Assembly: GCA_965227405.1 (NCBI GenBank) | Contig: OZ245758.1 | Span: 2,996,338 to 3,060,337, forward strand | Source of the DNA: Polyangiales bacterium | Lineage (GTDB): Bacteria > Myxococcota_A > Polyangia > Polyangiales > Houyiibacteriaceae | Direction of reading: 5' to 3' | Length of the DNA stretch: 64,000 bases | Shown here: positions 334 to 23,700 of the stretch, piece by piece | Layout: each line of letters begins with the position of its first letter | How positions within the stretch are numbered: position 1 is the first letter of the stretch | Made by a program: the position numbers and the translations under genes | Notes under the pieces: model-generated | Databases searched by the model: none | The model's input: the letters and a program-made list of their open reading frames with translations, nothing else | Told to the model about the DNA's origin: nothing

Positions 334-353
334 TGGACCCAGATCCTCGCGCA

Positions 354-4110: not shown

Positions 4111-5732
4111 TGCGCGTCCTCGTCCTCGTCCTCCTGGTCGGTTGCGTGGAAGCGCGCTCCGGTGCCGGCGCAGAATGCTCACGCAACAGTGAGTGCGCTG
4201 CACCTTTGGTCTGCGCCCTGGAGCGGTGTCGGAACGAGTGCAACAGCAGTCGAGACTGTCCGATCGGAGCATCCTGCATCCGAAGTGAATTGGACTTCGG
4301 GGTTTGCCAGCTCGATGACGAGTTGAGCTGCAGTGGCGAGTGTGCGGGTGATCTGGTGTGTGCCGAAGGTCAGTGCGTCAACTCGTGTGATGAGGGCTGC
4401 CTTCCCGGCAGCGAGTGTCGGGACGGAGGTTGTATCGAGTCGGCTGTATCGTGCGACGTCGACGCGGAGTGCTCCGAAGGTCAGGTCTGCCTCTCCGGGC
4501 GTTGCCAGCGTGAGTGTATTTCGATGCGTGATTGTCGGTTTGGCCGCTCGTGCGTGGATGGCCGCTGCGTGGTGGCGTCCATCGATGCGGGTCGAGATGT
4601 GGAGGTGCCGTTCGATGCGTCGCTGGACGCACCAGCTACAGACACAACGCCCGAGATGTTCTGCGATGCATCCGCGGTTCCAGCCATCGATGTTGCCGTG
4701 GGACGCGATCACGCGTGTGTCGTGTTAAGCACAGGCTCGGTCTACTGCTGGGGTGACAACGCACTCGGTCAGATTGGGAGCGCCGCTTTGGTGGTGGGGG
4801 TCACGGACGTTTGGTCAGCCTTTCCTGCCGACGTGAGCGATGCGCAGGAGGTGTCCGCGGGTGTTGCGCACACCTGCGTTCGTCGTGCCGATGACACCGT
4901 CGAGTGCTGGGGCGACAACACCGACGGCGGGTGTGGTGTTGGGCGAACCGACCGGATTGTGCGTGTCCCCGAGTCGATTGGGTTGCCCGGCGTGGCTCAG
5001 CTGGCGCTTGGCAGCCGCGCTTCGTGTGCTCGCGTCGGAACCACGGTCTCGTGTTGGGGGCGTCAGGTGAACAACGGTTTGGCCAACGGGGTGACGAGCG
5101 GAAATGCCTTCGCTCCGGTTGTGGCCACCGAACTGATGAATGTGCGCACCCTTGCATACGCGTATGCCGGCGGTGCTGCCTTGGACGTGAGCGGAGCACT
5201 TCGAGTCTGGGGCGACCATCATCCGGTTGCGGACACACCGGCGTACGTCTCTCCCAGCTTTACCGATGCCACGATGCTCGCGGTCGGCGCCGAGCACATC
5301 TGTTTGCTGCGATCGGACGGAAGTGTGTGGTGTGCGGGTGATAACGAGTTTGGTCAGCTGGGCGATCCATCGCGTGACACGAGTTCGGGACCCGACCTGT
5401 CTTGGACTCGGCTTCCGAGCCTGAGCGACGTGGTGCAGGTGGATGCAAGTGACAACAACACCTGTGCGCGAACGAGCACCGGGGACTTGTGGTGTTGGGG
5501 AATCAATACCAACGGTTCACTTGGTGTTGGGATGTCGGGAGTCGTCACGGAGCCGACCCAGGTCGAACTCCCAAGTGCGGCGGACGACGTGAGTGTCGGG
5601 AACGACGCCAGTTGTGCCATTGCGACAGGCTCGGTGTACTGCTGGGGCGCAAACTTGGCTGGACGGCTAGGGTTCCCGCAGACGTTCGGCTCGACAAACG
5701 AGCCAACGATCCCCGTGGAGTGCTTGCCGTGA
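4110..5732 (+). CDS. Cys-rich module + RCC1-repeat lipoprotein (paralogue 4)
   Basis: ATG at 4110 shares its A with the preceding TGA. Signal peptide MRVLVLVLLVGC. The N-terminal module is about 80% identical at protein level to paralogue 1. RCC1 blades present (YCWGDNALGQIG, ECWGDN, WCAGDNEFGQLG, YCWGANLAGRLG). Confidence 0.75.
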   Translation: MRVLVLVLLVGCVEARSGAGAECSRNSECAAPLVCALERCRNECNSSRDCPIGASCIRSELDFGVCQLDDELSCSGECAGDLVCAEGQCVNSCDEGCLPGSECRDGGCIESAVSCDVDAECSEGQVCLSGRCQRECISMRDCRFGRSCVDGRCVVASIDAGRDVEVPFDASLDAPATDTTPEMFCDASAVPAIDVAVGRDHACVVLSTGSVYCWGDNALGQIGSAALVVGVTDVWSAFPADVSDAQEVSAGVAHTCVRRADDTVECWGDNTDGGCGVGRTDRIVRVPESIGLPGVAQLALGSRASCARVGTTVSCWGRQVNNGLANGVTSGNAFAPVVATELMNVRTLAYAYAGGAALDVSGALRVWGDHHPVADTPAYVSPSFTDATMLAVGAEHICLLRSDGSVWCAGDNEFGQLGDPSRDTSSGPDLSWTRLPSLSDVVQVDASDNNTCARTSTGDLWCWGINTNGSLGVGMSGVVTEPTQVELPSAADDVSVGNDASCAIATGSVYCWGANLAGRLGFPQTFGSTNEPTIPVECLP

Positions 5733-7336
5733 CGCGGACGCAGATCGTGGTCGCATGCATTGTGCTCGGTGGATGTGCCGAGTCACCGAAGGGGCTTTCC
5801 GCGTCGTGCGATCGATCAAGTCAGTGCGACACGCCACTGGTGTGTCGGTTGGAGGTTTGTCGCAACGAATGCCGACGCTCGCGCGACTGCTCCGTTGGAT
5901 CCATCTGCTTGGTTGACGACAGTGGGTTCGGCGCGTGTCGGCTTTCCACGGAATCGGAGTGTGAACCTGGAGGCTGTCCTGCGCCGACGGTCTGTTTCGG
6001 CGGTCAGTGCCGCAACGCGTGTGTTGACGAATGTGCCGAAGGTCAATGCTTGGACGCGGATGGGAGCCCTTGTTTGGGTGGGGAGTGTGCATGTGTAGTC
6101 GAGCGACCGACGGGTTGTGTGCTTGATACTGATTGCGCATCCGGGCTCGTTTGTCGTGCTGGAACCTGTCTCGAGGAGTGCATCTCCGATCGCGATTGTG
6201 CGTTTGGAGCACGTTGTGTTGCAGGGCGCTGCGCTTCGGACGACGCGAGCACCGACGCGCCCGTCTTGGATGCATCCCTGGATGCGCGCGATGCCGGAGT
6301 TGCTGTGCTGCCGGACGTCGAAAGCGTCAGCGCAGGACAACACCACACCTGCGCCATCAGTTCAGGGATGGTGTGGTGTTGGGGGAATTTCGAGTGGGAA
6401 GTCCCTCCGTCGGTGATTCGACACTACCCCCCGCGTCCGATGGGGCTCGCAGCGACTCGTGTCGTGACCAGTCCGACCGCGCGCCACGTTTGTGCGATCG
6501 ACACGTCGGGCGGATTGCATTGTTTAGGCGTCAACACCAACGGTGTCGTCGGCGATGGATCCATGGTCACGCGGGAAACGTTCGTCGCTGTGACCGGGCT
6601 TGCATCAGACGTGCGTGATGTCGCCGTTGGGGTGAAACATACGTGTGCGATTCTCGGTGACGAGGTCTGGTGTTGGGGCAATGCGTTGGATGGCGCGTTG
6701 GGCGACGGTCGAATGAACGGGGTCGCCAATGAACCGGTCAATATCGGTTTGAACAATGCCGTCGACATCGCCGCGGGTCAGGACACAACATGCGCGGTTC
6801 GCGGAGATGGAAGCTTGTGGTGTTGGGGTTCCAACAACCGCGGCCGAAGTGGGCTCGGTGTATTGGATCGCGCACTCGTTCCGACGGAGGTTCCGCTCTC
6901 TTTTGCGGTTCGCTCAGTCGCGATGAGCCCGTTCCGGGGATGCGTCGTGGCCGAGGACGACACAGTTCACTGTTGGGGTCTCGACTTTGGCCCGCTCTTC
7001 GACCTGCGCGTGCCTACGGAAATGGTCGGTGTCCGCGCGCTCTCGGTTGCGGTTGGCTTCGCCCACATCTGCGGGGTGACTCCCGACAATCAAGCTCGTT
7101 GCTGGGGTGAAGGCTCAAGCGGGCAACTCGGACACGAGGACGCTCCTTCGTACCTCGACGTGCCCGGTGCTCTCGTGGTTGGGCTTGATGGGGTCGACGC
7201 GGTGGTTGCCGGGCATGGTCACAGTTGCGCGCGAACCTCGGGTCAACTCTGGTGCTGGGGATTCAACGATCGGGGTCAGTTGGGCGCGGGTCATCGTGCG
7301 TCCACACATGTGCCCGTTCCTGTGCTTGCCCCGTAG
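5729..7336 (+). CDS. Cys-rich module + RCC1-repeat lipoprotein (paralogue 5)
   Basis: GTG at 5729 overlaps the stop of paralogue 4 (GTGA). N-terminus VTRTQIVVACIVLGGC is a lipoprotein signal. Cys-rich module SCDRSSQCDTPLVCRLEVCRNECRRSRDCSVGSIC. RCC1 blades present (WCWGN, HCLGVNTNGVVGDG, WCWGSNNRGRSG, LWCWGFNDRGQLG). The track's 5489 start would overlap paralogue 4 in another frame and is rejected. Confidence 0.7.
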   Translation: MTRTQIVVACIVLGGCAESPKGLSASCDRSSQCDTPLVCRLEVCRNECRRSRDCSVGSICLVDDSGFGACRLSTESECEPGGCPAPTVCFGGQCRNACVDECAEGQCLDADGSPCLGGECACVVERPTGCVLDTDCASGLVCRAGTCLEECISDRDCAFGARCVAGRCASDDASTDAPVLDASLDARDAGVAVLPDVESVSAGQHHTCAISSGMVWCWGNFEWEVPPSVIRHYPPRPMGLAATRVVTSPTARHVCAIDTSGGLHCLGVNTNGVVGDGSMVTRETFVAVTGLASDVRDVAVGVKHTCAILGDEVWCWGNALDGALGDGRMNGVANEPVNIGLNNAVDIAAGQDTTCAVRGDGSLWCWGSNNRGRSGLGVLDRALVPTEVPLSFAVRSVAMSPFRGCVVAEDDTVHCWGLDFGPLFDLRVPTEMVGVRALSVAVGFAHICGVTPDNQARCWGEGSSGQLGHEDAPSYLDVPGALVVGLDGVDAVVAGHGHSCARTSGQLWCWGFNDRGQLGAGHRASTHVPVPVLAP

Positions 7337-7338
7337 GC

Positions 7339-8793
7339 TCAAAACACGAGGCGTACCGAAGCGCGCGTGGGTCCGACGTGGAGGCTCACTTCGTTGGCTG
7401 CGTCTTCGATCTCGTCGTCGCTTGCCGCGAGCAAGACCAGCGTCAGTCCTGTGGCCGAGAGCGCGAGCCCCGCGCCAAGTCCGATGTACCCCAACGCCTT
7501 CTGTAAGTTCGTTCGCTCGACAAGGTTGTTGTAGCGCTCTTGCTCCAAATCAAAGTCGAACATGTTGGGGCCATCTGGTGAGCACTCCAACGTTCCTCGG
7601 TTCTCTGGAAGCTCACAAAAGTCGAGCATGTCTTTGCGCGCTTCGTTGGCGTCCGAGTTCAAGTCGCCTCGCGCCACGAGGATCGGAACCAAGCCCGCGA
7701 TCACCAGTACACCACCGGCTCCAACAAACGCCCAACCGAGTTGTCGCCGTGATGCCGCACTTTCGCGACGCGTGGCCAACGCGGCATCGGTCCACGAGAA
7801 CTGAGGCGCAAGCTCCAACTCTTCGCCAGCTTCGATGTCCACACGTCCACGACTGGGCCGGCGTTCGGGGAGGAAGATGCGCACATCATGCGGACCGATC
7901 GGAAGTTCGACTTGTTCGCTCACATCCACCGAGCTGCCGTCGATCTCCAGTCGTTCCGGCGTGACCGGAGTGCGCAGCCGCAGTGAACCCATCACAGAAG
8001 GGTCGGCGTTTGGATCGATCTGCATGCGCAGCGTCACCTCACTGTCGACCGCGTCCTGAACCTCGACAGTCTCGCGTGTCGTTTGATAGCCCGCGCGCTG
8101 TCCTTCTACGAGATGCGCACCCGGCGAGGTTAGGTGTGTCGGAGTCATCGGTGTCGTACCAACGAACTCGCCATCCACGCGCACTTCGACGCCAGAGAGA
8201 TTGCTGCGCACGCGAATCGAACCGCGTCGCTCCAACAAAGGTCGCAAGGTCAGACGAACGAGTACCTCTTCGCCTCCCGCGACCGACACCACTTGGCGAG
8301 CAACGTCATGCCCCGTCGCGCGCGCTGACACCTCTACCGAACCGGCTTCAACGCGTAGAGGATCGACCAGTGGGGTTGTCGCGCGGTCGACGCCTCCAAT
8401 CATGATCACCGCACCTTGGACGTTGACTTCGACTCGCACCGAACCGATCTGATCGCGCAGTCGACTCAACGAACGATCGATCTCGCGCCGTTCCCGACGA
8501 GAAATTCGTCCTGCATCGTTGAGGTAGTGCTCGTAAAAACTGACAGCCTCGACAGGGTGGTCGAGACGTTCGTGCACACGTGCGAGGTTGTAGAGAACGG
8601 CTGGATCCGGTGCGAGGTCATATGCCGCGCGAAACTCAGCAAGCGCTTGTTCGTAGTCGCCCGCGTCGTAACGCGTCATGCCGCGTTCGATGTGTGCCGC
8701 TGCCGTTTCGGTGTTCGGTTGCGCCGCCACGATGCTCGGCTGTGCCGCGACGGTGATCGTGATCAGCAAGGCGGTGATCGCCACTCGCATCAT
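7339..8793 (-). CDS. Secreted/membrane TPR-repeat + PEGA-domain protein
   Basis: Signal peptide MMRVAITALLITITVAAQPSIVAAQ. TPR-like helices (YDAGDYEQALAEFRAAYDL...YNLARVHERL). PEGA-type beta domains (VRVDGEFVGTTP, EVSARATGHDVARQVVSV). C-terminal hydrophobic segments. Confidence 0.6.
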   Translation of the reverse strand: MMRVAITALLITITVAAQPSIVAAQPNTETAAAHIERGMTRYDAGDYEQALAEFRAAYDLAPDPAVLYNLARVHERLDHPVEAVSFYEHYLNDAGRISRRERREIDRSLSRLRDQIGSVRVEVNVQGAVIMIGGVDRATTPLVDPLRVEAGSVEVSARATGHDVARQVVSVAGGEEVLVRLTLRPLLERRGSIRVRSNLSGVEVRVDGEFVGTTPMTPTHLTSPGAHLVEGQRAGYQTTRETVEVQDAVDSEVTLRMQIDPNADPSVMGSLRLRTPVTPERLEIDGSSVDVSEQVELPIGPHDVRIFLPERRPSRGRVDIEAGEELELAPQFSWTDAALATRRESAASRRQLGWAFVGAGGVLVIAGLVPILVARGDLNSDANEARKDMLDFCELPENRGTLECSPDGPNMFDFDLEQERYNNLVERTNLQKALGYIGLGAGLALSATGLTLVLLAASDDEIEDAANEVSLHVGPTRASVRLVF

Positions 8794-10052
8794 TGGCTGT
8801 ACCCAGGCCGCATGAGTCCATCACGCTCCGAGGGACGAAGCTTAGTCATCTGCGTGGTCATCTCGGTGGTCGGCGCAACTCGCATCTCCGTGACGGTCAT
8901 CTCCGCACTGCTGGTCATCTCCGTGATGCTCGTCATTTCGGTGCGTTCGGGTGTCGCTGCTCCGTTGGGGATGTCCGGTTCTTGCGGCTGTTCGGGTGTC
9001 GTCGGTGCAGGCGCTTCAGTTCGGGTCAGCACCCACGTGAGACCGGCACCAAGAGCCAGCGCCAAAAGTAAGGCAGGCCACCAGACACGCCGAGGGGGTG
9101 GAGCGTGCCGACTCTCCATGGTTTTGGGAATCGACGCCTCACTCGCCATCGTCGCCATGAACGCCATGGGATCGGTTCGCGCACCCACAGGCGTCAGCAC
9201 AAGTTCGGTTGCGAACTCGTCCATTGCGGCTTCGAGTTCTTCGGTGGTCTGAAAACGTGCGCCGCGGTCCAGCTGCATTGCGCGCTCGATCACGCTGGCA
9301 AGTTGGGTGTCGAGCTCGGGGTACTCGCCCGCTGCAACACACTCGCCGGTGAAGATCTTCACCAGCAGTTCGGGAAGTGACTCGGCTTCAAACGGGCGGC
9401 GACCCGTCACCATTTCGTAAAGCACCACACCCAACGCATAGATGTCGGTTCGCAGGTCAACGTTCTTGCTGTTGCGGAGCTGCTCCGGCGACATGTACAG
9501 CGGCGTTCCGAGGATCGCGCCCGTCTCGGTTGCACCCGTGAGCTCTTCGGCGTTTTCAAACTTGCTGATCCCGAAGTCGATCAGCTTGACCTTGAGATCA
9601 CCCCCCGTGTTGACCAGAAAGATGTTCTCAGGCTTGAGGTCGCGGTGGATGACACCGGCCTCGTGCGCGATGCGCAAACCACGACACGCCTCACGCACAA
9701 CCGCACACGCCAAACCCGCCGGTAGCTTTCCGCGTGCGTCGAGGACCTCGCGTAGCGAGTCGCCCTCAAGCATCTCCATCAACACGTAAAACGAACCGTC
9801 TTCGAGCTGTCCTGCGTCAAAGATCTGAGTGATGTAGTCGGTGTCCAGAGTGCCGGCGACAGACGCCTCTTGAAGGAAACGCTTGATGATCGTCGCGTTT
9901 GCTTCACGCGGGGTCATCACCTTCAGTGCGCGCCGATGTTTCGTGAGCGTATGGCGCACCTCGTACACAACACCCATGCCGCCTGCGCCGAGCACGCGAA
10001 TAATCTCGAGTTTGCCGTCGAGAAAAGTGTCCCCGGCCTTCTTAGGCAGCAT
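8790..10052 (-). CDS. Serine/threonine protein kinase (Hanks-type)
   Basis: Kinase subdomains: G-loop LGAGGMGVVYEV, VAIK-like ALKVM, HRDLKPENIFL, DFG, SPEQ. C-terminal TM segment and Pro/Thr-rich tail. Start chosen at MLPKKAGD (ATG 10052). The longer upstream ORF extension would overlap the divergent EamA gene. Confidence 0.7.
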   Translation of the reverse strand: MLPKKAGDTFLDGKLEIIRVLGAGGMGVVYEVRHTLTKHRRALKVMTPREANATIIKRFLQEASVAGTLDTDYITQIFDAGQLEDGSFYVLMEMLEGDSLREVLDARGKLPAGLACAVVREACRGLRIAHEAGVIHRDLKPENIFLVNTGGDLKVKLIDFGISKFENAEELTGATETGAILGTPLYMSPEQLRNSKNVDLRTDIYALGVVLYEMVTGRRPFEAESLPELLVKIFTGECVAAGEYPELDTQLASVIERAMQLDRGARFQTTEELEAAMDEFATELVLTPVGARTDPMAFMATMASEASIPKTMESRHAPPPRRVWWPALLLALALGAGLTWVLTRTEAPAPTTPEQPQEPDIPNGAATPERTEMTSITEMTSSAEMTVTEMRVAPTTEMTTQMTKLRPSERDGLMRPGYSQ

Positions 10053-10944
10053 GCGCAGGGAGTATATCCTCCGCGTCGTGAAGCGCCGCGATTCCGACTC
10101 CGATTCCAAAAGGAACCGTGCGCGAATCGCAGTTGTCGTGGGCGTTGCCGCGATCAGCTTCGCAGCGATCTTCTTTCGCAAGACCGCACCCATGCATCCG
10201 CTTGTTGCCGCGGGTCTGCGTTTGTCGATCGCGGCAGTGTGCTTGTCGCCTTTCATCGTTCGTGCGTGGAAGGGCATGTCCCGCTCGGTGCGCATCGGCG
10301 CATGTGTGGGCGGGTTGTTCTACGCCGCGCACTTCGGAACGTGGGTGACCTCGCTGACGCTGACGAGTGTCGCCGCGTCGGTCACGTTGGTCACGGCGAC
10401 ACCCATTTTGTTGGCGACGTGGGCGTTCATCACCGGAACGGACAAACCGAGCAAGCTCCAACTTGGCGCGATCGCGATTGCCGTAGTGGGAGTCACCGTG
10501 ATCGGGTCACAGGACTCCGGTGGAGCGATCGTGGGCGATGCGTTGGCGTTTGCGGGTGCAGCAGCGATGGCGGGCTACTTAGTGATCGCGCGTCGACAAG
10601 GTGATCACTTGAACCCGATGGCGTTTACAGGTCTCGCATGCGCGGTGGGCGGTGCACTGCTCTTGTTAAGCACCGTTGTCTTTGAGGTGCCGCTCGAGAT
10701 CCCATCGATGGAGAGCTTCGGGTTTGTGCTTTTGGCGGTCGCCGTTCCGCAGTTGATTGGTCACACCGCGATGACCTACGCGCTTCGGGTGCTTTCACCG
10801 ACGCGGGTGGGCATGGCCACGGTTGCAGAGCCGGTCGGAGCGACGTTGCTCGCGTGGCTGTGGCTCACGGAAACACCTCCGTTGCTTACGCTGGTGGGTT
10901 GCGGGATTACGTTGAGCGCGGTGCTGCTCTCACTGCGCGAGTAG
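10051..10944 (+). CDS. EamA/DMT-family transporter (10 TM)
   Basis: Hydrophobic profile of two EamA repeats (IAVVVGVAAISFAAIFF..., ...LSAVLLSLRE). The start is uncertain: ATG 10051 overlaps the kinase start codon on the other strand; an in-frame GTG at 10078 is an alternative. Confidence 0.6.
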   Translation: MRREYILRVVKRRDSDSDSKRNRARIAVVVGVAAISFAAIFFRKTAPMHPLVAAGLRLSIAAVCLSPFIVRAWKGMSRSVRIGACVGGLFYAAHFGTWVTSLTLTSVAASVTLVTATPILLATWAFITGTDKPSKLQLGAIAIAVVGVTVIGSQDSGGAIVGDALAFAGAAAMAGYLVIARRQGDHLNPMAFTGLACAVGGALLLLSTVVFEVPLEIPSMESFGFVLLAVAVPQLIGHTAMTYALRVLSPTRVGMATVAEPVGATLLAWLWLTETPPLLTLVGCGITLSAVLLSLRE

Positions 10945-10951
10945 CTGTGCC

Positions 10952-12082
10952 CTAAATCGGAGCTTCGCAGATGTTCCGCGCGATCAGCTCGGCGATGCTC
11001 TGCAGCACAGGTCGTAGATCGGGCTGACAGATGCTCGCCAAAAAGCCATTCCCGGTTCGGCCGAAGTCTTGAACGACCTCGACAATGCGTCGTGCAGGCG
11101 GAGCAGAACCCACGCCGCCAAACTCGCACGCGGGAACAAGCTGCGTGTCGTCGTCAGGATCCAACGTGAACTGCATGCGCTCGTCGGCCAGCACTTCCGC
11201 GAAATCGACGTCGGTGGGATCCGGCGTCAGGTTGCGCGGAACACCGGTGATCGCAGCGACGATGACAGGTGCGTTTCGATCCAACTCCAGCGCGTGGAAC
11301 GCGTTCAGGTAGCGCGAGATCGGATGCAGGAACGAATCGTTGAACGCACATCGCGTTCGGAAGTGCCCCAACTCTGTGCGCGCGTCCGCCGAAGGATCAA
11401 AAATCGCGTCGTCGGCTGCGGAGCAATCGTCCTCATCAGTGACATAGACGATGGCGACAAGTGAATCGCCGCGAAGAAAACCTTCGTTGGGCGCGCCGGG
11501 TTCGGCTTGGGTTGTGATCGCGGACAACGAGGCTTCGAGTTGCTGTTCGAGTCCACAACCGTTGGTACCCAGTTCCGACAAACACGCGAAGTCATCGTTG
11601 AACTGAGTCGCGTTGTCGCCGTCGAACTGTAACCAGGGCGGGTCACCGAGCGATGTCCCGCAGCCTGAACGCGCATCGCTGACAAACACGCCATCATCGC
11701 CGTTACCCGGTGGGCACCCGATGACTCCGGGGTTGTCGCCCACGCCCATGTCCGTCGTCACGATTCCGATGCGCAAGTCTGTGATCGGTTCGAAATCGGG
11801 GAACCCGTCACCATCCGCGTCGGGCGGCGTGGTGAGTGTCTCGATCAACACCGGAAAGTTCTCGGCCAGTGAAGCCTGTTCCTCCGCCATCGAGTTCGAG
11901 TTGTCGATGACCCAAATCATGTCGACCGGAAGTGCAGCGCGGCACATGCGATCGCCAACGTCGAACCCTGGGACATCGCGTTGCGCGTCGATGCCCGTGT
12001 CGCCGGTGGCGGCGTCCATCGGGTCGTCGTCTCCACAATCGCAGGCCGTCAACGCGAGCACGAGCAAAGCGAAGTAGCGCAT
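10952..12082 (-). CDS. von Willebrand factor A (VWA)-domain lipoprotein
   Basis: Start at MRYFALLVLALTAC (lipobox LTAC). MIDAS motif DxSxS in IWVIDNSNSMAEEQ. Asp/Gly-rich acidic segments. Confidence 0.5.
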   Translation of the reverse strand: MRYFALLVLALTACDCGDDDPMDAATGDTGIDAQRDVPGFDVGDRMCRAALPVDMIWVIDNSNSMAEEQASLAENFPVLIETLTTPPDADGDGFPDFEPITDLRIGIVTTDMGVGDNPGVIGCPPGNGDDGVFVSDARSGCGTSLGDPPWLQFDGDNATQFNDDFACLSELGTNGCGLEQQLEASLSAITTQAEPGAPNEGFLRGDSLVAIVYVTDEDDCSAADDAIFDPSADARTELGHFRTRCAFNDSFLHPISRYLNAFHALELDRNAPVIVAAITGVPRNLTPDPTDVDFAEVLADERMQFTLDPDDDTQLVPACEFGGVGSAPPARRIVEVVQDFGRTGNGFLASICQPDLRPVLQSIAELIARNICEAPI

Positions 12083-12086
12083 ACGC

Positions 12087-12632
12087 TTAGGGTACTCGAT
12101 CAGCCGGGGAGTCCCAGTCACGGAGACGCGTCGCATCGATTTCAAACGCCGCGACCTCGCAGCGATCCAAGAGCCCGCGCAACGATCGGCGACCTGTTTG
12201 CAGATATGCTTCGAACTTGGGTTGAACGCTCGGCGCGTAGCGCGCGAACAAAGGCTCCCAATCGTTCGCATCAAGCGCACGAGGCGCGACCACGTCAACG
12301 TTGCGCGGGTCGGCACCCAAACGTCGAAGGTCTTCCGCTTCGATGTAGGGCATGTCGCACCCCACCACGATGACGGGCTCGGGCCCCAAGAGTGCGGCGA
12401 GACCCCCGATCGGTCCGGCATCGGCCATGCCATCGTCGATGCGCGCCACGTCGGGTAACAACGAGGCGTACTCGTGAGCTTTGCCGACCAGAACCGGGTC
12501 GAGACCAGCTTCTCGCGCCACTCGAACCGTTCGCTCGAGCAAGCGCTCTGCGCCTACGTTCAGCAGTCCTTTCGGCGTTCCCATCCGAGAAGAGGCGCCA
12601 CCGACCAAGATTCCGAGTCTCACGAGAAACAA
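12087..12632 (-). CDS. mobA: Molybdenum cofactor guanylyltransferase
   Basis: N-terminal signature LVGGASSRMGTPKGLL and the VVGCDMP motif typical of MobA. 181 aa. Confidence 0.7.
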   Translation of the reverse strand: MFLVRLGILVGGASSRMGTPKGLLNVGAERLLERTVRVAREAGLDPVLVGKAHEYASLLPDVARIDDGMADAGPIGGLAALLGPEPVIVVGCDMPYIEAEDLRRLGADPRNVDVVAPRALDANDWEPLFARYAPSVQPKFEAYLQTGRRSLRGLLDRCEVAAFEIDATRLRDWDSPADRVP

Positions 12633-12680
12633 ACGCTACGACGGGAGCGTATGCATGGGTAGGCGAAGGATGGCATCCTA

Positions 12681-13244
12681 GTGGCAGTGAGGGGTTGGAT
12701 TGGCTTGATGATGCTGGCGCTGGCGTTGGCCTGTGGGTCTGATGACGCACAGTCCAATGAACGGGTCGAGCAGCGCGCTAGCGTGATTCCTGATCTCGAG
12801 CCTGCACCCGAAAGTCCCGACCCGGTGTACAGCCCGTTCGTGGTGCAGATGAGCACCGACGAAACTCCGTTCAGCGTGATCTCGTTCAAAGACGTCGGCA
12901 TGTCTTTGTCGTCTGACGAACAGCAACACGTGTACGAGACGATTGCCGAAGGTCTCGCGCTCGAGTTCGGTTCGCGCATGCAACACGATCCGCACTCGGC
13001 CGACCCCTCGAACCATCTCGCGTGTGAAGGTGAGCACGTGTACGTCGACATGTGGCAGTCCGGTTCCGGCTGGGGGTACTCGTTGTGGTCCGGGTGTGGC
13101 GAAGATGATCAGTTCGCGCATCGTGAAGTCGAAGTCGCGATCGAACCCGACAACCGCGTCGCATCGATCCAGTCGCTGACTGACGACATCGCTCAAGAGT
13201 TGCGCCGCGCAGTGCGCGAAAACTGTTTCACCCGCCACTGCTAA
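12681..13244 (+). CDS. Hypothetical lipoprotein
   Basis: Signal peptide MAVRGWIGLMMLALALAC (lipobox). No recognisable domain. Acidic. Confidence 0.45.
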   Translation: MAVRGWIGLMMLALALACGSDDAQSNERVEQRASVIPDLEPAPESPDPVYSPFVVQMSTDETPFSVISFKDVGMSLSSDEQQHVYETIAEGLALEFGSRMQHDPHSADPSNHLACEGEHVYVDMWQSGSGWGYSLWSGCGEDDQFAHREVEVAIEPDNRVASIQSLTDDIAQELRRAVRENCFTRHC

Positions 13245-14486: not shown

Positions 14487-15482
14487 ATGGCCGACGACGA
14501 AGAGACGTCCTCCGAGGAAGAGTCATCCGACGAAGAGACCTCATCGGAGGAAACGTCATCCGAAGACACGTCCACCGAGCAAGAGTCATCCAACGCGGAT
14601 GATGCGGCCGACGACGCGGATGATGATGCGGCCGACGCGGATGATGACGACGACGTTCTCGACGGCGACGACGATGAAAGTGTTCTTGAAGGCGACGATG
14701 AGCTCGACGCCAACGAGAAGGCAATGCTCGACGACCTGGACGACGACCTCGATGACGGGGACGACGACGACGAGGACGACGAGGTCAGCGAAGACGAGAT
14801 CGCAGAGCCGATCAAACCGATCAGCGAGAAGGAGCAACGCCGTGCGGGCTGGGGCTGCTTGATTCTGTTGATCGCGATTCCACTCGGCGTTTGGTACGGA
14901 GCTCAGAGTTGGCTGGCGAGTGCACTCGAACTGGACCAAAGCGGCGTGCCCGATTGGTACCTCGAAGCTTCGCAGGACGACGCCGGACCTCGAACCGCAA
15001 CCGGCAGCTTTGTGCCACCGGCTGACGAGGTGGAGTGGCTCACCGATCCCGAAGCGGCGGTGAACCAAGCACAAGAGAGCGAAGATCCCCTCATCGTAAT
15101 GTTCTCGTCGGACAACGAAGAGAGCCAACGAATGAACAGCGGCACGTGGCTCAACCGCAACGTCGTGCGGATGCTGCAAGACACGGTGCCCTTGCGTTTG
15201 GAGCTCGGCGACGAGTCGCATGACTGGGCCGAGCGCTTCGAGGTGACGCGCGCGCCGACCATTCTCTTTCTCTCGCCCGACTTGGAGCGACTGAGGCCCG
15301 ATACAGCTCGCTTGGTCGACGCGAACGACATGGAGATCTACCTCTACGAAACCCAGGAAAATCTGGAGGAAGAGCGCGTGTACCAGCCTGCCGATGGCGA
15401 GGCGGAGGGGCTGCTGCCGGATGAAACCGAGGATGCCGAAGACGAGCCTGAGCCTGAACAGACGCCCTCCGAAGGCGAATGA
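14487..15482 (+). CDS. Highly acidic single-pass membrane protein with thioredoxin-fold-like domain lacking CxxC
   Basis: N-terminal D/E/S low-complexity region (about 110 aa). TM GWGCLILLIAIPLGVWYGAQSWL. A domain resembling the thioredoxin-like fold (LIVMFSSDNEES...APTILFL) without redox cysteines. Acidic C-terminus. Confidence 0.5.
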   Translation: MADDEETSSEEESSDEETSSEETSSEDTSTEQESSNADDAADDADDDAADADDDDDVLDGDDDESVLEGDDELDANEKAMLDDLDDDLDDGDDDDEDDEVSEDEIAEPIKPISEKEQRRAGWGCLILLIAIPLGVWYGAQSWLASALELDQSGVPDWYLEASQDDAGPRTATGSFVPPADEVEWLTDPEAAVNQAQESEDPLIVMFSSDNEESQRMNSGTWLNRNVVRMLQDTVPLRLELGDESHDWAERFEVTRAPTILFLSPDLERLRPDTARLVDANDMEIYLYETQENLEEERVYQPADGEAEGLLPDETEDAEDEPEPEQTPSEGE

Positions 15483-15632: not shown

Positions 15633-18600
15633 ATGACATCACGCCTTGTTCTCGCGTTCGCCGTCGTCTTTTCGTCGATGGCGCAGGCCCAAACCACTGG
15701 GCTCGAAGTATCACTCTACGGAACCACGCAAGCTGCCTACGGCGGTGCGCTTCGCATGAGCGGTGTGGCGTTCCAAACGCAAGGGTACGCCGAGCTTCGA
15801 ACACTTGGTGGTGCACAGATCGAAGCGCGACTGCGCGACTACGACTCGTCGGAGCGGCAGTGGCAAACGATCGAAACGGTCACGGTGCGGTCCAACGCGT
15901 CGGGTGCGTTCGATTTTGTGCTCGAGGTTCCTGAACGTCGCTTCCGCCAAGTGCAGCTGCAGATCGAAGTGCGTGGTGCGGGCAAAGAGCGCACGTTTGA
16001 GTACCCGGTGCAGCTGCGTTCGCCTTTGGCGTTTGACCTGCTCTTGGATCGCAACCGGTACGAGCCGGGCGAGACCGTGCACATGTGGAGTCGTCTCTTT
16101 CGCAGCGAAGACGGCGCGCCGGTAAGCGGTCGTACCGTGGCGGTGCGTGTTCACGATCCGAGTGGCCGGCCCATGGTCGAGCGTTCGGTGCAGGTGGCGC
16201 AAAGCGGGGCGGCGACACTCGATATCGAGCTACCGGATTCTGCAGCCGACGGTGTGTACGCGGTCGACCTGCGCTTGGACGACAGCATTGCCGGTGCCAC
16301 AGCGCGCCGAACGTTCCAAGTGGCACGGCGCACCGTGGAGCGTGTCTTGGTGGAAACCACGATCGACCAACGCGTGGTGCCTCCTTCAGGACAAATCACC
16401 GGCAACGTCACAGTGACCACGCCCAGTGGTGCACCTGTTGTAGGTGCCGAGGTGCAGTTGCAAATTGGTTCGGATCGTCGTCAGCGCCAGGTTGTTCAGA
16501 CCGATAGCGAAGGCGTAGCCGCGATCCGCATGCAAGCACCCGCGTACTTGGTGGGTGATGTGCAGGCGCAATCGCTGCAGGTTCGTGTGCAGCACTCGGC
16601 GCACGGCACGTTGCACTCCAGTGCCTCGTTCTTGCTTTCGCGAGTCGAGTGGCAAGTCACCGCGACTGCGGCCAACGGCGCGATCGTTCCCGAGGTCGAC
16701 ACCGAAGTCGTGATCAGCGTCAACGATCCACGCGGTGAACCAGCACCCGCAGGCACGAAGGTGACCGTGACGGGTGATGCGATTCGTGGAGGGTCGCGCG
16801 AAGTGGAAATCGATGCGCATGGACTCGCCGTCGTTCCGGTGCGTGTCGCCGATGGTGATGCGGGTCCACTTCGCGGATCCACGCCGGGCTGCAGCGGAAT
16901 TTCGGGCGTGCGTGTGGAGGTCGACGTGCAGACCGAGCGCCCCGCGTTCGCGCGTGTGTGTCTGGCCGTCAACCCTAAGGCTCAAGTGCGTCCCCGCGTG
17001 GTGCGAAGCGTGGTTGCGCCCGGGTCGATCGTGGAAGTCGATCTTGCTCGTCATCCCGACGTGCGCGGCCGCCCTGTGTTGGTGGAAGCGTTGATGAACA
17101 ACATCGCGATCAGCGCGGCCTTTGCGAGTGGAGCACGTGCACGAGTTCAGCTTCCGGCCGACGTCGGCGGCATCGTGCAGATTCGAGCTCGACCGCTATT
17201 GCCGCATGATGCGCGACATCCCTTGGATCAACCCGGCGGTTCTTCGCTTGGCACCGGTTCGTACGACGCGGTTCTAGTCCGTCCGGCCGACGCGTTCGGG
17301 TTTGAGATTGGTCGCGAACAAGAGACGTACCGCGTTCGCGAAACCGCGCAGTTGGGCTTGCGCACCACACAATCCTCGCCTCAAGCATGGGCAACGTTGG
17401 TCGCGCGCGATTTGGCTGCGCATGGCGGCGAGACGCCGTACTCGGTCGCATGGATGCGCGGTGCGTTGGATGCAGCAGTGACCGCGCCCGATGCGCAGGG
17501 CAACGACCTGCTTCTTCGCGCCGCGTTGTTGCGAAGCCTGCCGCAAGACAACCAACCGCGTCGTGAGCCGCCCTTGGTGCAGCCGTACTGGCGCAGCTCG
17601 TACCCACGGGGTGGCCAGGGCGGGACGTTGCGCGATCCCGTGGCGGATCGTGACCGGATGCGACGTCGACAAATCGGCCAGCTGATGATGCAGCTCGAAC
17701 GTTTTGTGTCGTCGTGGGATCTCGAGCGCGCCGTTCGAGACGGACTTCTGGTGCGTCGTGGCAACGGATACGACTTTCATCCGGATGCGATTGCGAACTT
17801 GGTGCGCGCCCGCCAGCTCGGAGAAGCGATCAGCGACACCTTGGGTGGCGATACCGCCAGCATCGCAATGATCCGCGCGGTGGATGCATCGTTCACGTTC
17901 GACGCTGTGGCTCGTCGCATCGCCCGTGGTCGTTTGGTGATGTTGATGATGGCGATTTCGCGTTTCTCCAACCCGGATGACGCAAACGCAGCACGCGCGA
18001 GTCAGGGCCAACCTCCCGAACGCTGGCTTTCACGCATGGTGCAGTTGGGAGTGTTGCGTCCGAACCAGCTTCTCGATCCCTGGGGACGCGCGTTTGAGTT
18101 TCGTCGTGCAGGTACACCGCAGCTGGTCATCACCGATCGTGCACCTGCGTGGGAGCTGGTCAGTGCAGGACCCGACGGACGCTTTGGTTCGCGCGACGAC
18201 GTTCGCAATCCCTTCCAGCGATTGGTTGCCGAAGGTTCGCCCTATGCGGTGGTGTCGGGTGAAGACCGGTTGATGAAAGCATTGAGCACGCTCGCTCCCG
18301 GACCTCGCGTGTTGCAGGCGATGGCGACCGCGTATGCGAGCGTGAGTCTTCAGGCTCTCGAAGAGCAGCGACAGCGCGCTGTGAGCGCCAACGCGTCGGA
18401 AGGCGCGGAGGTCATGGACGACATGCTTGGCGGCCTAGCTACGCGAGGTGCTGGTGGCATGGCAGCACAGTCGGCGCCCCGACGGTCGGCCCGTGCGCGT
18501 CCCGCACCTTCACCGGCGATGGACGCGGCCGGCGAGGTCATGGCGGAAGCCGACTTCGAAGACGAAGATGGCGAGCCAGAGCCCGAGGAAGAATCCGAAC

Positions 18601-20759
18601 GACGTGAGCGCAACGCGCAGACTCAGGGAGTGTTCGACCCTATTGCGAACCTCAACGCGATTGTCCGCGAGCGTTTTCCCGCCACACTTCATTTCATCGG
18701 CGAGGTCGCCTTGGATGGCACGCTGACCACGGTTCCGCTCGAGCTCGCCGACGCGTTGACGACGTATCGCGTGGAAGCGATCGCGTGGACTTCGAGTGGT
18801 TGGCTGACAACGGCCACCGTCGATGTGAAGGTTGATCAAGAAGCGACTGTCGACGCTCCCACACCACCATTTGGCACTGTGGGCGACACGTTGCGCTTGC
18901 CGGTTCGGGTGGGCAACCGCACACGCCAGCCGCTCGAAGTACGCGTTGTGGTCGAGCACGAAGGCGAAGGTGGCGTGACGATTCCGCAACCGTTGACGCT
19001 CACCGTTCCGCCGCGTGACGCGATCGAGAGCACGGTCGAAGTGAACCTGACGGCACAAGGCGCCGGTTCGTTGCTGATTCGGGCCATGCGCGCGTCGGAT
19101 GAACGACCACTGGATGCCGTGCGACGTCCCCTGACCGTGTGGAGCGATGCACGCTTGGTACGCGTGCGACGTGAGCTGCTCTTGGTCGACTCAAGTGGTG
19201 CTGAGCTGACCATCGATATTCCGGAAGATGCGAGTGAGCGCGGTGCGGGCGAACTTCGCGTGTTGCCGGCTACGGCGATCTTTGGCGACGTGACGCAGCT
19301 GACGCATCCCAGCGTGGGCTGGGCGCTAGCGTTGGTCGGCGAAACTCCGCCGGAGTCGTTGTTGGTCAACGCACGTCGCACGCTCCGCGCAGGCGACCCT
19401 GTGGAGGATCATCAGATTCACGGACCACCGGGTGTGCTGGCGATGGCTGCTGCGACGGTGTGGAAAGACGCGACCGTTCAGGATCCTGTTCTGAGACGTG
19501 CACTGCGATCGATCAGTCGCATTCTCGGCGACCCCACCAATACGCCCTCGCCGGGTCAAACCTTGGCCATGGCTGAAGTGCTCGCGGCGCTGGCTCCGTG
19601 TGTGCAAGAGGGTCGTCCTGCAGTTCGTGGTGTGCTGATCGAACTGACCGATGAACTGCGTCGTCGCGTTGGAAGTGGTGCGGTCGCACAGTCCGAGGCG
19701 CCGATTCTTTGGGCGCGCAGTGCAGCCGCGTTGGCTTTGGTGGGCGGGGATACGCGTGCACGCGAACTGCTGCGCCGAGCGGAGCGACACGTGGTGCGTT
19801 TGGATCGCGAAGCATTCTTGGAAGAGCCCTCACAAGCGGGCATTCCCGTCGCGCGCATCACGCCTACGGCGATCATGGCGATCGCGTGGGCGGCGTTGGA
19901 AGAGCGGGGACGTGCGATGGCGTACTTGCGTCACTTGGTGTCGCTCCATCGTGGTGCAGAGCACTGGCAGGCCGATGCACGCGTGATGGCTGCAGCCGCG
20001 GCGGGCACTGTCGCAGGCCGAGGTGCAGGAAGCACGCTGAGCGGAACCTACGGCGGCCAGTCTCTCTCGTTCAGTGCGCTTGATGACGCACCCGACTCAC
20101 GCATTCGTGTGGCTGAACTGCCGAGTGCAGTTGCGGGTTCCCATCGCGTTCGCGTGAACGGACCACGTCTCGCGTTGGTGTACCTCGATGTGCGTTATGG
20201 GCGGCCTTGGTCAGCGGCTCCTGACCGTGCGGCGCGAATGGACTTGGAGATCGAAGGGGATCTCGGGCCGCGTGATGCGCGTGCAGGCATTGCGCTGACC
20301 TTGCGCAACCGCGCACCACGTCTTGCGACCTCACCGGTGGTCGAGATCGATCTGCCGGCAGGGACCGAGCTCGACGAACCCACGCGCGCGGTGTTGCGCG
20401 GTCTCACCGTCGTGGAACCCACGGTGGAAGGACGTACGCTGCAATTGCATCTGCGGCCCTTGGCACCCGGTGGTCGTGCACGTGTACCGCTGCCCCTTCG
20501 TTGGAGTGTGGGTGGAACGCTCCGTGGGTTGGGCGTAACCGCGTACGACGATGCCACAGCACCTTCGACCGAGGTGCGACCGCTCAGCATTCTTCCTTCG
20601 CGCGAACTGACGATTGCCGATGAAGGACAAGAGCCCGAGCAAGCAGAAGCCGAGCGAACACCAACGCCTCAACCGCCTCCACCACCGCCACCCTTACCAC
20701 GTCCGGTCGATGCGTTTGGCCCTGTCGCGATGCTTCTTGAAGGAGGTGCGCGATGCTGA
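15633..20759 (+). CDS. Giant secreted protein (1708 aa), alpha-2-macroglobulin-like MG-domain signature + GspG-like pseudopilin motif; paralogue 1
   Basis: Sec signal MTSRLVLAFAVVFSSMAQAQ. MG2-like motif LLLDRNRYEPGETVHMW. Multiple Ig-like beta regions. GspG C-terminal-like segment ...LLDPWGRAFEFRR...ELVSAGPDGRFGSRDDVRNPF. Helical alpha/alpha-like region. Pro-rich tail. No CGEQ thioester motif seen. Confidence 0.45.
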   Translation: MTSRLVLAFAVVFSSMAQAQTTGLEVSLYGTTQAAYGGALRMSGVAFQTQGYAELRTLGGAQIEARLRDYDSSERQWQTIETVTVRSNASGAFDFVLEVPERRFRQVQLQIEVRGAGKERTFEYPVQLRSPLAFDLLLDRNRYEPGETVHMWSRLFRSEDGAPVSGRTVAVRVHDPSGRPMVERSVQVAQSGAATLDIELPDSAADGVYAVDLRLDDSIAGATARRTFQVARRTVERVLVETTIDQRVVPPSGQITGNVTVTTPSGAPVVGAEVQLQIGSDRRQRQVVQTDSEGVAAIRMQAPAYLVGDVQAQSLQVRVQHSAHGTLHSSASFLLSRVEWQVTATAANGAIVPEVDTEVVISVNDPRGEPAPAGTKVTVTGDAIRGGSREVEIDAHGLAVVPVRVADGDAGPLRGSTPGCSGISGVRVEVDVQTERPAFARVCLAVNPKAQVRPRVVRSVVAPGSIVEVDLARHPDVRGRPVLVEALMNNIAISAAFASGARARVQLPADVGGIVQIRARPLLPHDARHPLDQPGGSSLGTGSYDAVLVRPADAFGFEIGREQETYRVRETAQLGLRTTQSSPQAWATLVARDLAAHGGETPYSVAWMRGALDAAVTAPDAQGNDLLLRAALLRSLPQDNQPRREPPLVQPYWRSSYPRGGQGGTLRDPVADRDRMRRRQIGQLMMQLERFVSSWDLERAVRDGLLVRRGNGYDFHPDAIANLVRARQLGEAISDTLGGDTASIAMIRAVDASFTFDAVARRIARGRLVMLMMAISRFSNPDDANAARASQGQPPERWLSRMVQLGVLRPNQLLDPWGRAFEFRRAGTPQLVITDRAPAWELVSAGPDGRFGSRDDVRNPFQRLVAEGSPYAVVSGEDRLMKALSTLAPGPRVLQAMATAYASVSLQALEEQRQRAVSANASEGAEVMDDMLGGLATRGAGGMAAQSAPRRSARARPAPSPAMDAAGEVMAEADFEDEDGEPEPEEESERRERNAQTQGVFDPIANLNAIVRERFPATLHFIGEVALDGTLTTVPLELADALTTYRVEAIAWTSSGWLTTATVDVKVDQEATVDAPTPPFGTVGDTLRLPVRVGNRTRQPLEVRVVVEHEGEGGVTIPQPLTLTVPPRDAIESTVEVNLTAQGAGSLLIRAMRASDERPLDAVRRPLTVWSDARLVRVRRELLLVDSSGAELTIDIPEDASERGAGELRVLPATAIFGDVTQLTHPSVGWALALVGETPPESLLVNARRTLRAGDPVEDHQIHGPPGVLAMAAATVWKDATVQDPVLRRALRSISRILGDPTNTPSPGQTLAMAEVLAALAPCVQEGRPAVRGVLIELTDELRRRVGSGAVAQSEAPILWARSAAALALVGGDTRARELLRRAERHVVRLDREAFLEEPSQAGIPVARITPTAIMAIAWAALEERGRAMAYLRHLVSLHRGAEHWQADARVMAAAAAGTVAGRGAGSTLSGTYGGQSLSFSALDDAPDSRIRVAELPSAVAGSHRVRVNGPRLALVYLDVRYGRPWSAAPDRAARMDLEIEGDLGPRDARAGIALTLRNRAPRLATSPVVEIDLPAGTELDEPTRAVLRGLTVVEPTVEGRTLQLHLRPLAPGGRARVPLPLRWSVGGTLRGLGVTAYDDATAPSTEVRPLSILPSRELTIADEGQEPEQAEAERTPTPQPPPPPPPLPRPVDAFGPVAMLLEGGARC

Positions 20760-23700
20760 GGCTTTCGTTGGCTCTGGTCCTGCTCGCGAATGTGGCGAGC
20801 GCGCAAACCTCGACTGCACGACGCGTGAACCGCGGCGAAGTGACGGGCGTCGAACTCCAGATCGAAGGTGCGCTGACTGCGCGACGCGGCGAAACACTTC
20901 GCTGGAGTCTGGTTGCGTACGAAGTCGTTGGGCTTGATCAGCTGCGTCCGGCTGCCGGTGCAGAGATCACGATCGCCACGTCGCTCAAGCCAGGCGAGTT
21001 CGCCGCTGAAGCCACCGCGGATGCGCGCGGGCGAGCGTTGGTGGAAATCGAAGTCCCCGAGGATGCGGGAGCGAACTTTGGCGCCAACGTGCGCGTGCAT
21101 GCGCGTCGTGGTGTGTCGCGACGTTTTGACCTGCAGGTTCAACTGCAGGAGCCGCGTGTGTTGGAACTTCGCGCAGCACCCGCGGCGCGTGCGGGCGGAA
21201 CCCTTCCGGTGTTTGGGCGCTACCAGCGCTTTGACGGCCAAGCGATTCCCGAAGCGGCGATCGAACTCCAAGCCTACGACAGCCGGGGACCACTCGGTCG
21301 TCCGGTACGCGTCGAGTCGGATCTCGCTGGTGTGTTCACCGCGGACCTGCGCATTCCTCGCGATGCCGTCGCGCCTTTGCGCGTGACTGCGAAAGGTCCC
21401 GAGGACGAAGAGGAACGGCGCATTGAAGCCGCTGCGGCTGCAGTGTTGCTGGAACCGGCGGCTCCCCCGCTGGTGGTCGCCGTGTCGACCGACGGTGTGG
21501 TGCATGGCTCGCGTGCACGCGTTCCGGTTCAGGTGGTGATCCGACGTGCCGATGGGCGTCCCGTGGAGGGCGCGCTCGTGCGAGTGGGCAACCAACCCGT
21601 ACCGCTTACGCGCGAAGAAGAGGAAGCACAGCGACGTCTTCCGCTGACCCGAACGGACGCGCGCGGACGTGCCACGCTTGAATACGAGGCGCCGCGCGTC
21701 ACATCGGGATACCGCGACGTGAACGTGCAAGTCCAAGTAGGGCGCGCAGGCATTGGGCGTGCAACTGGCTCCGCGCGCTTGCGCATCACCAACCAGTCGC
21801 ACTTTGCGCAGCTAAGCGTGGAGGGTGGCGCATTGGTTCCGACGTTGGGTGCGCGCCTCTTTGCCGAAGTCGTTCGTGCAGATGGTCATCGCGCTCCGGC
21901 AGGTGTGCCGGTGGTCTTTACAGGCCCGCGCATTGGTCGACACGAGGCGACCACCGACGCGTCCGGTATTGCTGTGGCGTCGATGCAGGTGGGCCCCAAA
22001 GCCGACGAGGATCGTTGTGGCGGCGATGCGGTCACGGCAGTGGACATGAAGGTGGCCAACAACGACCTGATTCGTCTCTGTGTTCCGGTCGATCCCGACG
22101 CGGCGACGCGTGTGACGGTGGGCGAAGCTCTGGTCGGTCCCGGCGACACGGTGTCGGTGGAGATCGAACGCACGGCTGCAGCCGCGCGACTTCCTGTCGC
22201 GGTGACCGTCTTCAACGCTCAGAACCATCCGGTGCACACGACGGTTCTTGCACCGCGCACCAACACGCTGGAGATCGAAGCGTCAGGTCGAGGCGCCATG
22301 CGCGTTCGAGCGCGACCCTTGGTGGGTACGCGTCAGGAAGAAGCGCGAGGAAGCTTTGCTGCGTTCTGGGTCGCGCCGGATCGAAACCTCAACGCAGCCG
22401 GTGCAGCCGAGGGATCAACCAACACAGTCAACGTGCGCAGCACGGTTCAAGGTGCCGAACACGCGACCACTCTGGCGGTGTTGTGGCCGTTGGGGCAGCC
22501 GTTCGACGTCGGTCCTGCAACGCTTTCCGATCCGCGTGGGGAGTGGTCCGCCAACGTCGTGGCTGCCCACCTTGCGCGCACCACGCCGCTGGACATCGCG
22601 GCGCCGATTCGTTTGCGTGGACGCACGACGAGTCCCGCACCCGAACCCGCGTCGCCTGAGCAGTACGGACTTCTTCGCGATCCCTGGCGCGCCAGTGCGC
22701 GTTTTGTCGAAGGTCGATTGGCGTTGGTCTTCCGCGCAATTGAACAGCGCATCGAATCGGCGGTTCCTGAACAGATCGACGAAGTTGCCTCGGTCGAGCG
22801 AGGTCGCTTTCGCTTCAACCGCCAGCTCCTGGCGTCGTTGCAAAGCGGACAACTGGGTTCCGAAGGTGCAACCGGTCTTGGCGGCGAGCCACTGACGATC
22901 GAACGTCTCGAAGCACTGGATCGCGCGTTCACGTACGACAACGTCGCGCGTCGGATTACGCGACGACGTCTGTTCAAGATCCTGTTGGCGTTGCGCGCGT
23001 TCGTGCAGCAGCAAGCGCTGGATCTGGCGTGGACGCGTCCCGGGGATCCCACGTTGTGGATCGAGCGCCTGCGCAACCAGTACGTGCCGCAGGTCGGGCA
23101 GTTGCGTCCCGCGGAGCTCGTGGATGGTTGGGGGCGTCCGTTCCGTCTTCGCGCGACCGGCCGTGCGCGCTTCACCCGCGTGCAGCCCGTTGACGGTTAT
23201 GAGCTGGTGAGTGCCGGTCCCGACGGACGTTTTGGAAACGGCGACGACGTGGCCAACCCGATCGCGCGTGTGCTTCCCAACGGTTCGCTCTACGGGCGTG
23301 CGGTGGGTGAGGATGCTCTGGTGGCGCGTCTCCAAGGCGTTGAGTTGGGTCGCGCGACGCTCGACATGGCAGCGCGCGTGTTTGGTGTGGGTGCTGTCGG
23401 TATTCCCGCACCGAGTTCCACACCGCGTGGTGTGTCGCTGGGTTCGTTGCCCGCTCCGATCGAACCGGATCGTTGGGCACTTGCCCTTCGGCGTCCGACA
23501 CAGCCCGCGGACAGTCGAGTGCAGCGCATCGAAGGCAACGCGTCGGTCGAGGTGGGTGATGAACCGCGTACGTGGCGCGCTGCCCTTCTCACGATCACGC
23601 CCGATGGCTCGCGCCACATTCACGAGGATGGTGTGCGTGCTGGCTCGAGTGTGTTGCGCGACTTGATCCTGCCTTCGCGCTTGCGCGTAGGTGAGCCGCT

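Follow-up and report, generated by a model that had tools for sequence, protein, structure and literature searches.

A GspG-type pseudopilin head embedded in a conserved pair of giant macroglobulin-superfamily proteins from Polyangia

The gene pair and the inserted module

A 64,000-nucleotide stretch of DNA from a Polyangiales bacterium (assembly GCA_965227405.1, contig OZ245758.1, positions 2,996,338 to 3,060,337 of the forward strand) contains two adjacent genes for giant exported proteins, here named paralogues A and B, and in both proteins an internal domain resembles the soluble head of GspG, the major pseudopilin of type II secretion systems (T2SS). The whole stretch is referred to below as the window, and all coordinates are positions in it. 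The main features of the locus are as follows, with residue (aa) numbers counted in the respective protein.

15633..20759, + strand: gene of paralogue A, 1708 aa, with a Sec signal peptide; member of the alpha-2-macroglobulin (A2M) superfamily without thioester motif (open reading frame, Pfam, family profile against the PDB)
15633..15692, + strand: Sec-type signal peptide of A (MTSRLVLAFAVVFSSMAQAQ), with no lipobox Cys and no prepilin motif (translation, motif scan)
17628..18380, + strand: inserted module of A, aa 666-916, ~250 aa, comprising an N-terminal helix and hairpin, the pilin-like head and C-terminal helices (profile search, AlphaFold2)
17898..18239, + strand: GspG-type head core of A, aa ~756-869, with alpha1-C-like helix, alpha-beta loop, beta strands and calcium loop
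18069..18095, + strand: LLDPWGRAF of A, aa 813-821, aligned to DPWG of GspG
18153..18215, + strand: ELVSAGPDGRFGSRDDVRNPF of A, aa 841-861, equivalent of the calcium loop
18381..18662, + strand: linker of A, aa 917-1010, low in complexity and predicted to be disordered; a candidate for the bait region
18726..18950, + strand: Pfam A2M (PF00207) region of A, macroglobulin (MG) domains located after the bait in A2M/C3
20753..25390, + strand: gene of paralogue B, 1545 aa, with a start codon that overlaps the stop of A (open reading frame)
22673..23419, + strand: inserted module of B, aa 641-889, 33% identical to the module of A
23117-23143, + strand: LVDGWGRPF of B, aa 789-797; the region 23117..23263 covers beta strands and the calcium-loop equivalent
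23201-23263, + strand: ELVSAGPDGRFGNGDDVANPI of B, aa 817-837, equivalent of the calcium loop with Asn at the Ser/Thr ligand position

A and B are paralogues that align by BLASTP (2e-50) with 27% identity across 907 amino acids. The stop codon of A overlaps the start codon of B in the sequence ATGCTGA at 20753..20759, and a Shine-Dalgarno-like site (GAAGGAGG) is located 8 nt upstream of the start of B, which together indicate that the two genes form a translationally coupled operon. Paralogue B also begins with an ordinary Sec-type signal peptide (MLRLSLALVLLANVASAQ); neither signal peptide contains a Cys, so that a lipobox is absent from both A and B. Open reading frames on the minus strand across the region (for example 17274..18011) were treated as shadow reading frames of high-GC DNA.

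The conserved module extends beyond the pilin-like head, which forms its core, by ~90 residues on the N-terminal side and ~45 on the C-terminal side. A template-free AlphaFold2 model of the module of A (aa 666-916), computed from a 39-row alignment, has a predicted local distance difference test score (pLDDT) of 90.8 and a predicted template modelling score (pTM) of 0.84. The modules of A and B share the motif DPWG...ELVSAGPDG-x-G-x-x-DD-x-NP. An earlier annotation of the window, made from the sequence without database searches and referred to here as the first-pass annotation, had placed a GspG-like motif at 17790-18220 in A and at about 22930-23270 in B; both LLDPWGRAF and ELVSAGPDGRFGSRDDVRNPF lie inside the former interval, and both LVDGWGRPF and ELVSAGPDGRFGNGDDVANPI inside the latter.

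Homology of the module core to the GspG head

When single sequences are compared, the resemblance of the module to GspG is suggestive. The Pfam family T2SSG (PF08334) scores 12 bits on the full-length protein, compared with a gathering score of 21, and it is the sole Pfam family matched by all four of the module sequences first collected. Single-sequence phmmer searches with the modules of A and B found no match in the PDB, and a scan of NCBIfam found no relevant one.

With profiles, the resemblance is specific and significant. A profile of four module sequences matched only two sequences in the PDB, both of them GspG, and a profile of 39 module sequences matched four of the 177,635 PDB sequences, all of them GspG/PulG. 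The best of these matches, 3g20 (E = 0.0029), pairs profile positions 99-193 with chain residues 20-114, a span of 95 residues that takes in almost all of the soluble head. A bona fide GspG from a planctomycete (L064/P0152), which carries ELISAGPDGQFESEDDLSN, is matched by the module hidden Markov model (HMM) at 5e-7. We gathered 93 relatives of this protein, all with Pfam T2SSG and most also with N_methyl, and aligned 46 that possess both domains. Comparison of the 39-sequence module alignment with these 46 genuine GspGs by hhalign gives a probability of 97.6% (E = 4.3e-12), with 43% identity over 46 columns that comprise DPWG, two strands and the GPDG...DD loop.

The module core has the pseudopilin head fold of GspG, and it is a true homologue of the GspG head, with the alpha1-C helix and alpha-beta loop as well as a small beta sheet and the calcium loop. 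The proposal of the first-pass annotation that a GspG-like head is embedded in both giant proteins is thus borne out by profile methods, which are significant and point only to GspG. Both of the checks that it had put forward as decisive came out in its favour: in the HMM comparison the single-sequence T2SSG match falls below the Pfam threshold and the profile methods reach significance, and the residues of the calcium loop are conserved at matching distances. Because an HMM signal is present and the predicted fold is compatible with a pseudopilin head, the pseudopilin-head interpretation stands.

What surrounds the head is very different from a pseudopilin. GspG, PulG and EpsG (T2SSG together with N_methyl, PF07963) possess a leader peptide, an N-methylated Phe and a hydrophobic alpha1-N helix, whereas the giant proteins have none of the three, do not reach the Pfam gathering score and lack the gsp operon context. 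Unlike in GspG, the head is situated at aa ~756-869 of a Sec-exported protein of 1500-1800 aa. The Pfam scan of the giant proteins yielded no N_methyl match, and a prepilin motif of the G-F-T-L-I-E type was found in the first 80 residues of 0 of 121 full-length relatives. With Sec-type signal peptides in both A and B, the earlier claim that neither protein has a prepilin leader holds. The hydrophobic alpha1-N helix is absent, as the equivalent of alpha1 begins at its alpha1-C part; the profile alignment likewise starts at residue 20 of 3g20, which is a soluble construct, and the sequence upstream of the head is predicted to consist of polar helices and a hairpin. Among the 32 open reading frames of the window scanned with Pfam, none is a gsp or pil gene. 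Since the prepilin leader, the hydrophobic helix and gsp genes are all missing, the giant proteins are not pseudopilins, and the absence of the leader and of the hydrophobic pilin helix implies that the domain can be neither processed by prepilin peptidase nor polymerised into a pseudopilus. The domain is a soluble, exapted pilin head. We also considered whether a conserved DPSFTFD ahead of the alpha1-C-like helix could be a relic of the G-FTLIE site; this would require a deletion of ~20 hydrophobic residues and is a speculation that we do not claim.

In OutG/PulG, calcium is bound by the side chains of D117, T/S122 and D125 (sometimes D124) and by the carbonyls of residues 114 and 119, and in real pseudopili both the subunits and the filament depend on the loop for their stability (PMC13081927). 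Residues D848, S853, D855 and D856 of A correspond to D117, S/T122, D124 and D125 of PulG/OutG. Relative to the GPDG Asp, the residues of A are S at +5 and DD at +7/+8, which is the OutG/PulG spacing (D-x4-(T/S/N)-x-D-D). Paralogue B has N at +5, as do 35 of 144 relatives. Among these 144 relatives the four ligand positions are occupied by D in 142, by T, N, S or D in all 144, by D in 143 and by D in all 144, respectively; D815 and W817 of the DPWG motif are invariant and G818 is present in 142. The likeness to the GspG calcium loop noted in the first-pass annotation is thus retained in both spacing and residue conservation, and because ligand positions and spacing are conserved, it is very likely, on sequence grounds, that the module retains the calcium site.

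Host proteins, insertion site and distribution

Both giant proteins are Sec-exported, thioester-less members of the A2M/C3 superfamily, with the series of MG domains, including the A2M (PF00207) region, by which the superfamily is recognised. Pfam matches above threshold in A are MG2 (4e-13), A2M (5e-7) and MG4 (9e-6), and the families MG2, MG4, bMG3 and A2M are found in 21-25 of 29 relatives. A full-length family profile matches SaA2M/ECAM (3e-23), mosquito TEP1 (1e-19), C3 (1e-15) and human A2M (3e-15) in the PDB, as well as CD109. The CxEQ thioester motif is present in neither A nor B nor in any of 121 full-length relatives, and no Pfam match to a thiol-ester domain (TED) was obtained in the giant proteins or the relatives scanned. 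Thioester-less bacterial A2Ms of type II, such as MagD, are known (PMC5764988).

The module is found at a characteristic place in this framework. In C3, C4 and C5 the anaphylatoxin domain is carried at the same insertion point. The segment that follows the module aligns to residues 953-1076 of ECAM, 973-1113 of SaA2M, 729-876 of human A2M and 44-190 of the C3 alpha' chain. In ECAM the bait-region domain is largely disordered and lies within MG8, where cleavage leaves residues 923-942 disordered and the cleaved bait includes 956-963 (PMC4498604). As the segment after the module aligns downstream of the ECAM bait at residues 923-963, the module (aa 666-916) and the linker (aa ~917-1010) are placed by alignment at the bait-region position. 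They lie directly upstream of the post-bait or post-anaphylatoxin MG domains and therefore take up the classic insertion point of the superfamily.

The properties of the linker are consistent with this location. An AlphaFold2 model of 745 aa of A (18-row alignment, pLDDT 74.7, moderate confidence) brackets the module with low-confidence stretches at aa 643-673 and 900-982, with pLDDT <50 for ~900-982. Across the family, the distance from the calcium loop to the FPxT motif ranges from 67 to 516 residues, and the linker beyond the C-terminal helices is hypervariable, with 23.5% Gly, 16% Ala, 9% Arg, 8% Ser and 6% Pro. By sequence its composition is bait-like, and this predicted disordered, hypervariable linker is at the position equivalent to the A2M bait (MG6; MG8 in bacteria). 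Many relatives (P0004, P0024 and P0139 among them) have a semi-conserved Gly-rich linker motif, …EA.G.GGLGL.G.G.GGGG…; the linker of paralogue A in the window is instead rich in Arg and Pro and then strongly acidic (…EADFEDEDGEPEPEEESERRER…).

Comparison with better known members of the superfamily shows where the giant proteins differ. ECAM/YfhM of E. coli and SaA2M of Salmonella (type I) and the MagD protein of P. aeruginosa (type II) are inner-membrane lipoproteins, whereas the giant proteins lack a lipobox. ECAM, SaA2M and MagD are linked to pbpC or a mag operon, and the giant proteins to neither. The bait-region domain of bacterial A2Ms is replaced or augmented by the 250-aa pilin-like module. 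Unlike known bacterial A2Ms, the giant proteins form a conserved tandem pair of paralogues and have no TED recognisable by sequence; the absence of the thioester they share with type II. The insert of C3, C4 and C5 is the anaphylatoxin (ANA) domain, a disulfide-rich four-helix bundle, while that of the giant proteins has a pilin-head fold and is found in bacterial proteins without a thioester.

The first-pass annotation had also suggested a search for other proteins with such an internal domain, and this revealed a large family, not a single case. Word-indexed homologue searches, which are almost insensitive to this family, returned 2 and 6 matches. Run exhaustively against 1.84 billion cluster representatives, an HMM search returned 433 matches at E<=1e-3 and 223 at E<=1e-30, with ~170 weaker ones between E 1e-10 and 1e-3, and among the matches listed almost all are proteins of 1500-1800 aa with the module at aa ~650-940. 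In representative genomes of GTDB the family is present in Polyangia of the phylum Myxococcota (Sandaracinaceae, Polyangiaceae, Haliangium, Kofleriaceae and others), with more distant versions in Gemmataceae and other Planctomycetota. A tandem same-strand pair of module-bearing giant genes is found in nearly all related loci with sufficient flanking sequence; the pair is kept across Polyangia and is also present in one Gemmataceae chromosome (L060).

The planctomycete representatives (L060 at 1753..12889 on the + strand, and L053, L058, L059 and L061) are A2M-like giant proteins with a distant module at 25-30% identity. Their modules have an intact GPDG..T.DD loop and a poly-Gly linker, and the giant proteins of L060 constitute the tandem pair mentioned above. 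A metagenome-assembled genome of Deltaproteobacteria (L057, 9593..10213, + strand) contains a 207-aa stop-to-stop reading frame in which a hydrophobic N-terminal segment is followed by the C-terminal pilin-like part only (…DLWGNLFTLRK…ELVSAGPDGRPGSKDD…). The frame may encode a Sec-exported head that stands alone, or it may be a gene fragment; it could represent an evolutionary intermediate.

Public databases name the relatives "MG2 domain-containing protein" or "hypothetical protein", and in the searchable literature we found no paper that links macroglobulins with pseudopilins or with a GspG-like or T2SSG domain, and nothing relevant on bacterial A2M in myxobacteria. The earlier supposition that the architecture was undescribed agrees with both the searchable literature and the generic annotation of the relatives. 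Superfamily and domain are each known; what is new is their conserved combination in the giant proteins.

Proposed function, alternatives and surrounding genes

These results lead us to propose, with a probability of roughly 0.6, that a GspG head has been exapted at the bait site of a pair of thioester-less macroglobulins that act as a MagD-like trap or shield with a calcium-stabilised latch. The giant proteins would be periplasmic or secreted protease traps or shields, similar to the thioester-less (MagD-type) macroglobulins, and the flexible Gly-rich linker would serve as the bait. In place of the usual bait-region domain, the module would form a rigid plug or latch and keep the protein in its native conformation up to the cleavage of the adjacent linker; its role beside the bait is probably structural or that of a latch, with calcium stabilising it. 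Because the pair is conserved, A and B probably work together, and they might do so, for example, as a heterodimer.

Several considerations count against this proposal. The function of the giant proteins is one that we infer, and protease trapping in the absence of a thioester is itself poorly understood. The best T2SSG match to the isolated module has an E-value of 0.013 and 16 bits, compared with the gathering score of 21, and a Foldseek search of the PDB, in which GspG ranked first, is not significant (E = 1.3). Calcium binding by the module is predicted from the conserved ligand positions, and the physical splitting of an MG domain around the module is a prediction as well. A TED-like domain is unrecognisable by sequence in the C-terminal ~500 residues. 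The linker of paralogue B, composed of Pro, Gly and Ser, is short (~25 aa) and fits a bait less well. The 10 flanking window genes that we tested provide no functional clue, as none of them is conserved beside the pair in related loci.

A different view of the giant proteins, which we regard as unlikely, is that they are large surface or extracellular proteins of an adhesin- or matrix-like type with MG/Ig-like domains, in which the module binds a ligand or partner, for instance in contacts between cells or with prey. The lack of a thioester, of a TED recognisable by sequence and of a lipoprotein anchor would fit such proteins, as would the matches to Big_1, CarboxypepD_reg and invasin-like Ig folds that overlap the MG domains, and the host clades are social or predatory bacteria. 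However, the order of MG2, MG3 and MG4 through A2M and the best full-length matches are specific to the A2M/C3 superfamily, and the hypervariable disordered segment is located exactly at the bait position.

It is still less probable that the pilin-like domain keeps a pilin-type interaction, by which the giant protein would dock on the pseudopilus, assembly platform or secretin of a T2SS or type IV pilus for secretion, surface display or guarding of the secretion channel and would not be a passive macroglobulin part. Type IV pilus and T2SS-like systems abound in Myxococcota and Planctomycetota, and a closely matching ELISAGPDG motif is present in planctomycete GspG. Docking would also fit the detailed conservation of the head, which extends to the surface-exposed calcium loop that real pseudopili need for stability (PMC13081927). 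Against this stands the absence of the alpha1-N helix, which mediates incorporation into the filament and most subunit contacts, and of gsp and pil genes, which occur neither in the window nor as conserved neighbours; moreover, the location of the domain in the middle of the protein, between flexible linkers at the bait site, indicates a role inside the macroglobulin. Independent origin of the GPDG...DD loop and the DPWG turn in an unrelated helical/beta domain, with which the sub-threshold Pfam match, the merely local hhalign alignment of 46 columns and the non-significant Foldseek result could be reconciled, is largely refuted and very improbable.

Returning to the macroglobulin proposal, we speculate further that Polyangia and Gemmataceae have a hitherto unrecognised class of macroglobulins, heterodimeric and thioester-less, in which the exapted pilin head is the trigger or latch and calcium occupancy gates the trapping or another switch, or else in which the head is a tether to pseudopilus or type IV pilus machinery; this scenario is tentative and we would not expect it to hold in full. 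If it is true, the stability of the plug beside the bait would be controlled by whether calcium occupies the GspG-type loop, which would result in calcium-gated protease trapping or a calcium-gated conformational switch.

To our knowledge, pilin and pseudopilin heads are known, with few exceptions, as the tips of subunits that are anchored by the N-terminus and polymerise. A head without the helix, built into a different machine, shows that the GspG head is an autonomous and transferable folding unit. It is also the third type of insert at the A2M/C3 hot spot, after the bait-region domain and the anaphylatoxin domain. The analysis defines a sizeable family, with >220 clusters at 50% identity and gene pairs in two phyla, which offers a testable handle on the triggering of thioester-less bacterial macroglobulins and a reason for Pfam/InterPro to extend the T2SSG model.

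The neighbours of the pair encode a GT21 glycosyltransferase, a thioredoxin-like protein, SCP2 and bPH_2, and there is no pbpC or mag-type operon beside it. The gene for the thioredoxin-like protein (Thioredoxin_7; 14487..15482, + strand) is directly upstream of A, and homologues are located upstream of the pair in the two closest loci only (L001 and L002). An HtrA/DegP-type periplasmic serine protease (Trypsin_2 and PDZ domains) is encoded 29 kb downstream of the pair at 54247..55413 on the - strand and shares the region with these putative trap genes.

Two other parts of the window deserve mention. A 1085-aa reading frame at 30998..34255 (- strand) matches MVP_shoulder (2.8e-27), Vault_3 and Vault_4, making it a bacterial homologue of the major vault protein of eukaryotes. 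At 42..7336 (+ strand) a paralogue array of four tandem genes encodes RCC1-repeat (beta-propeller) proteins of 528-650 aa.

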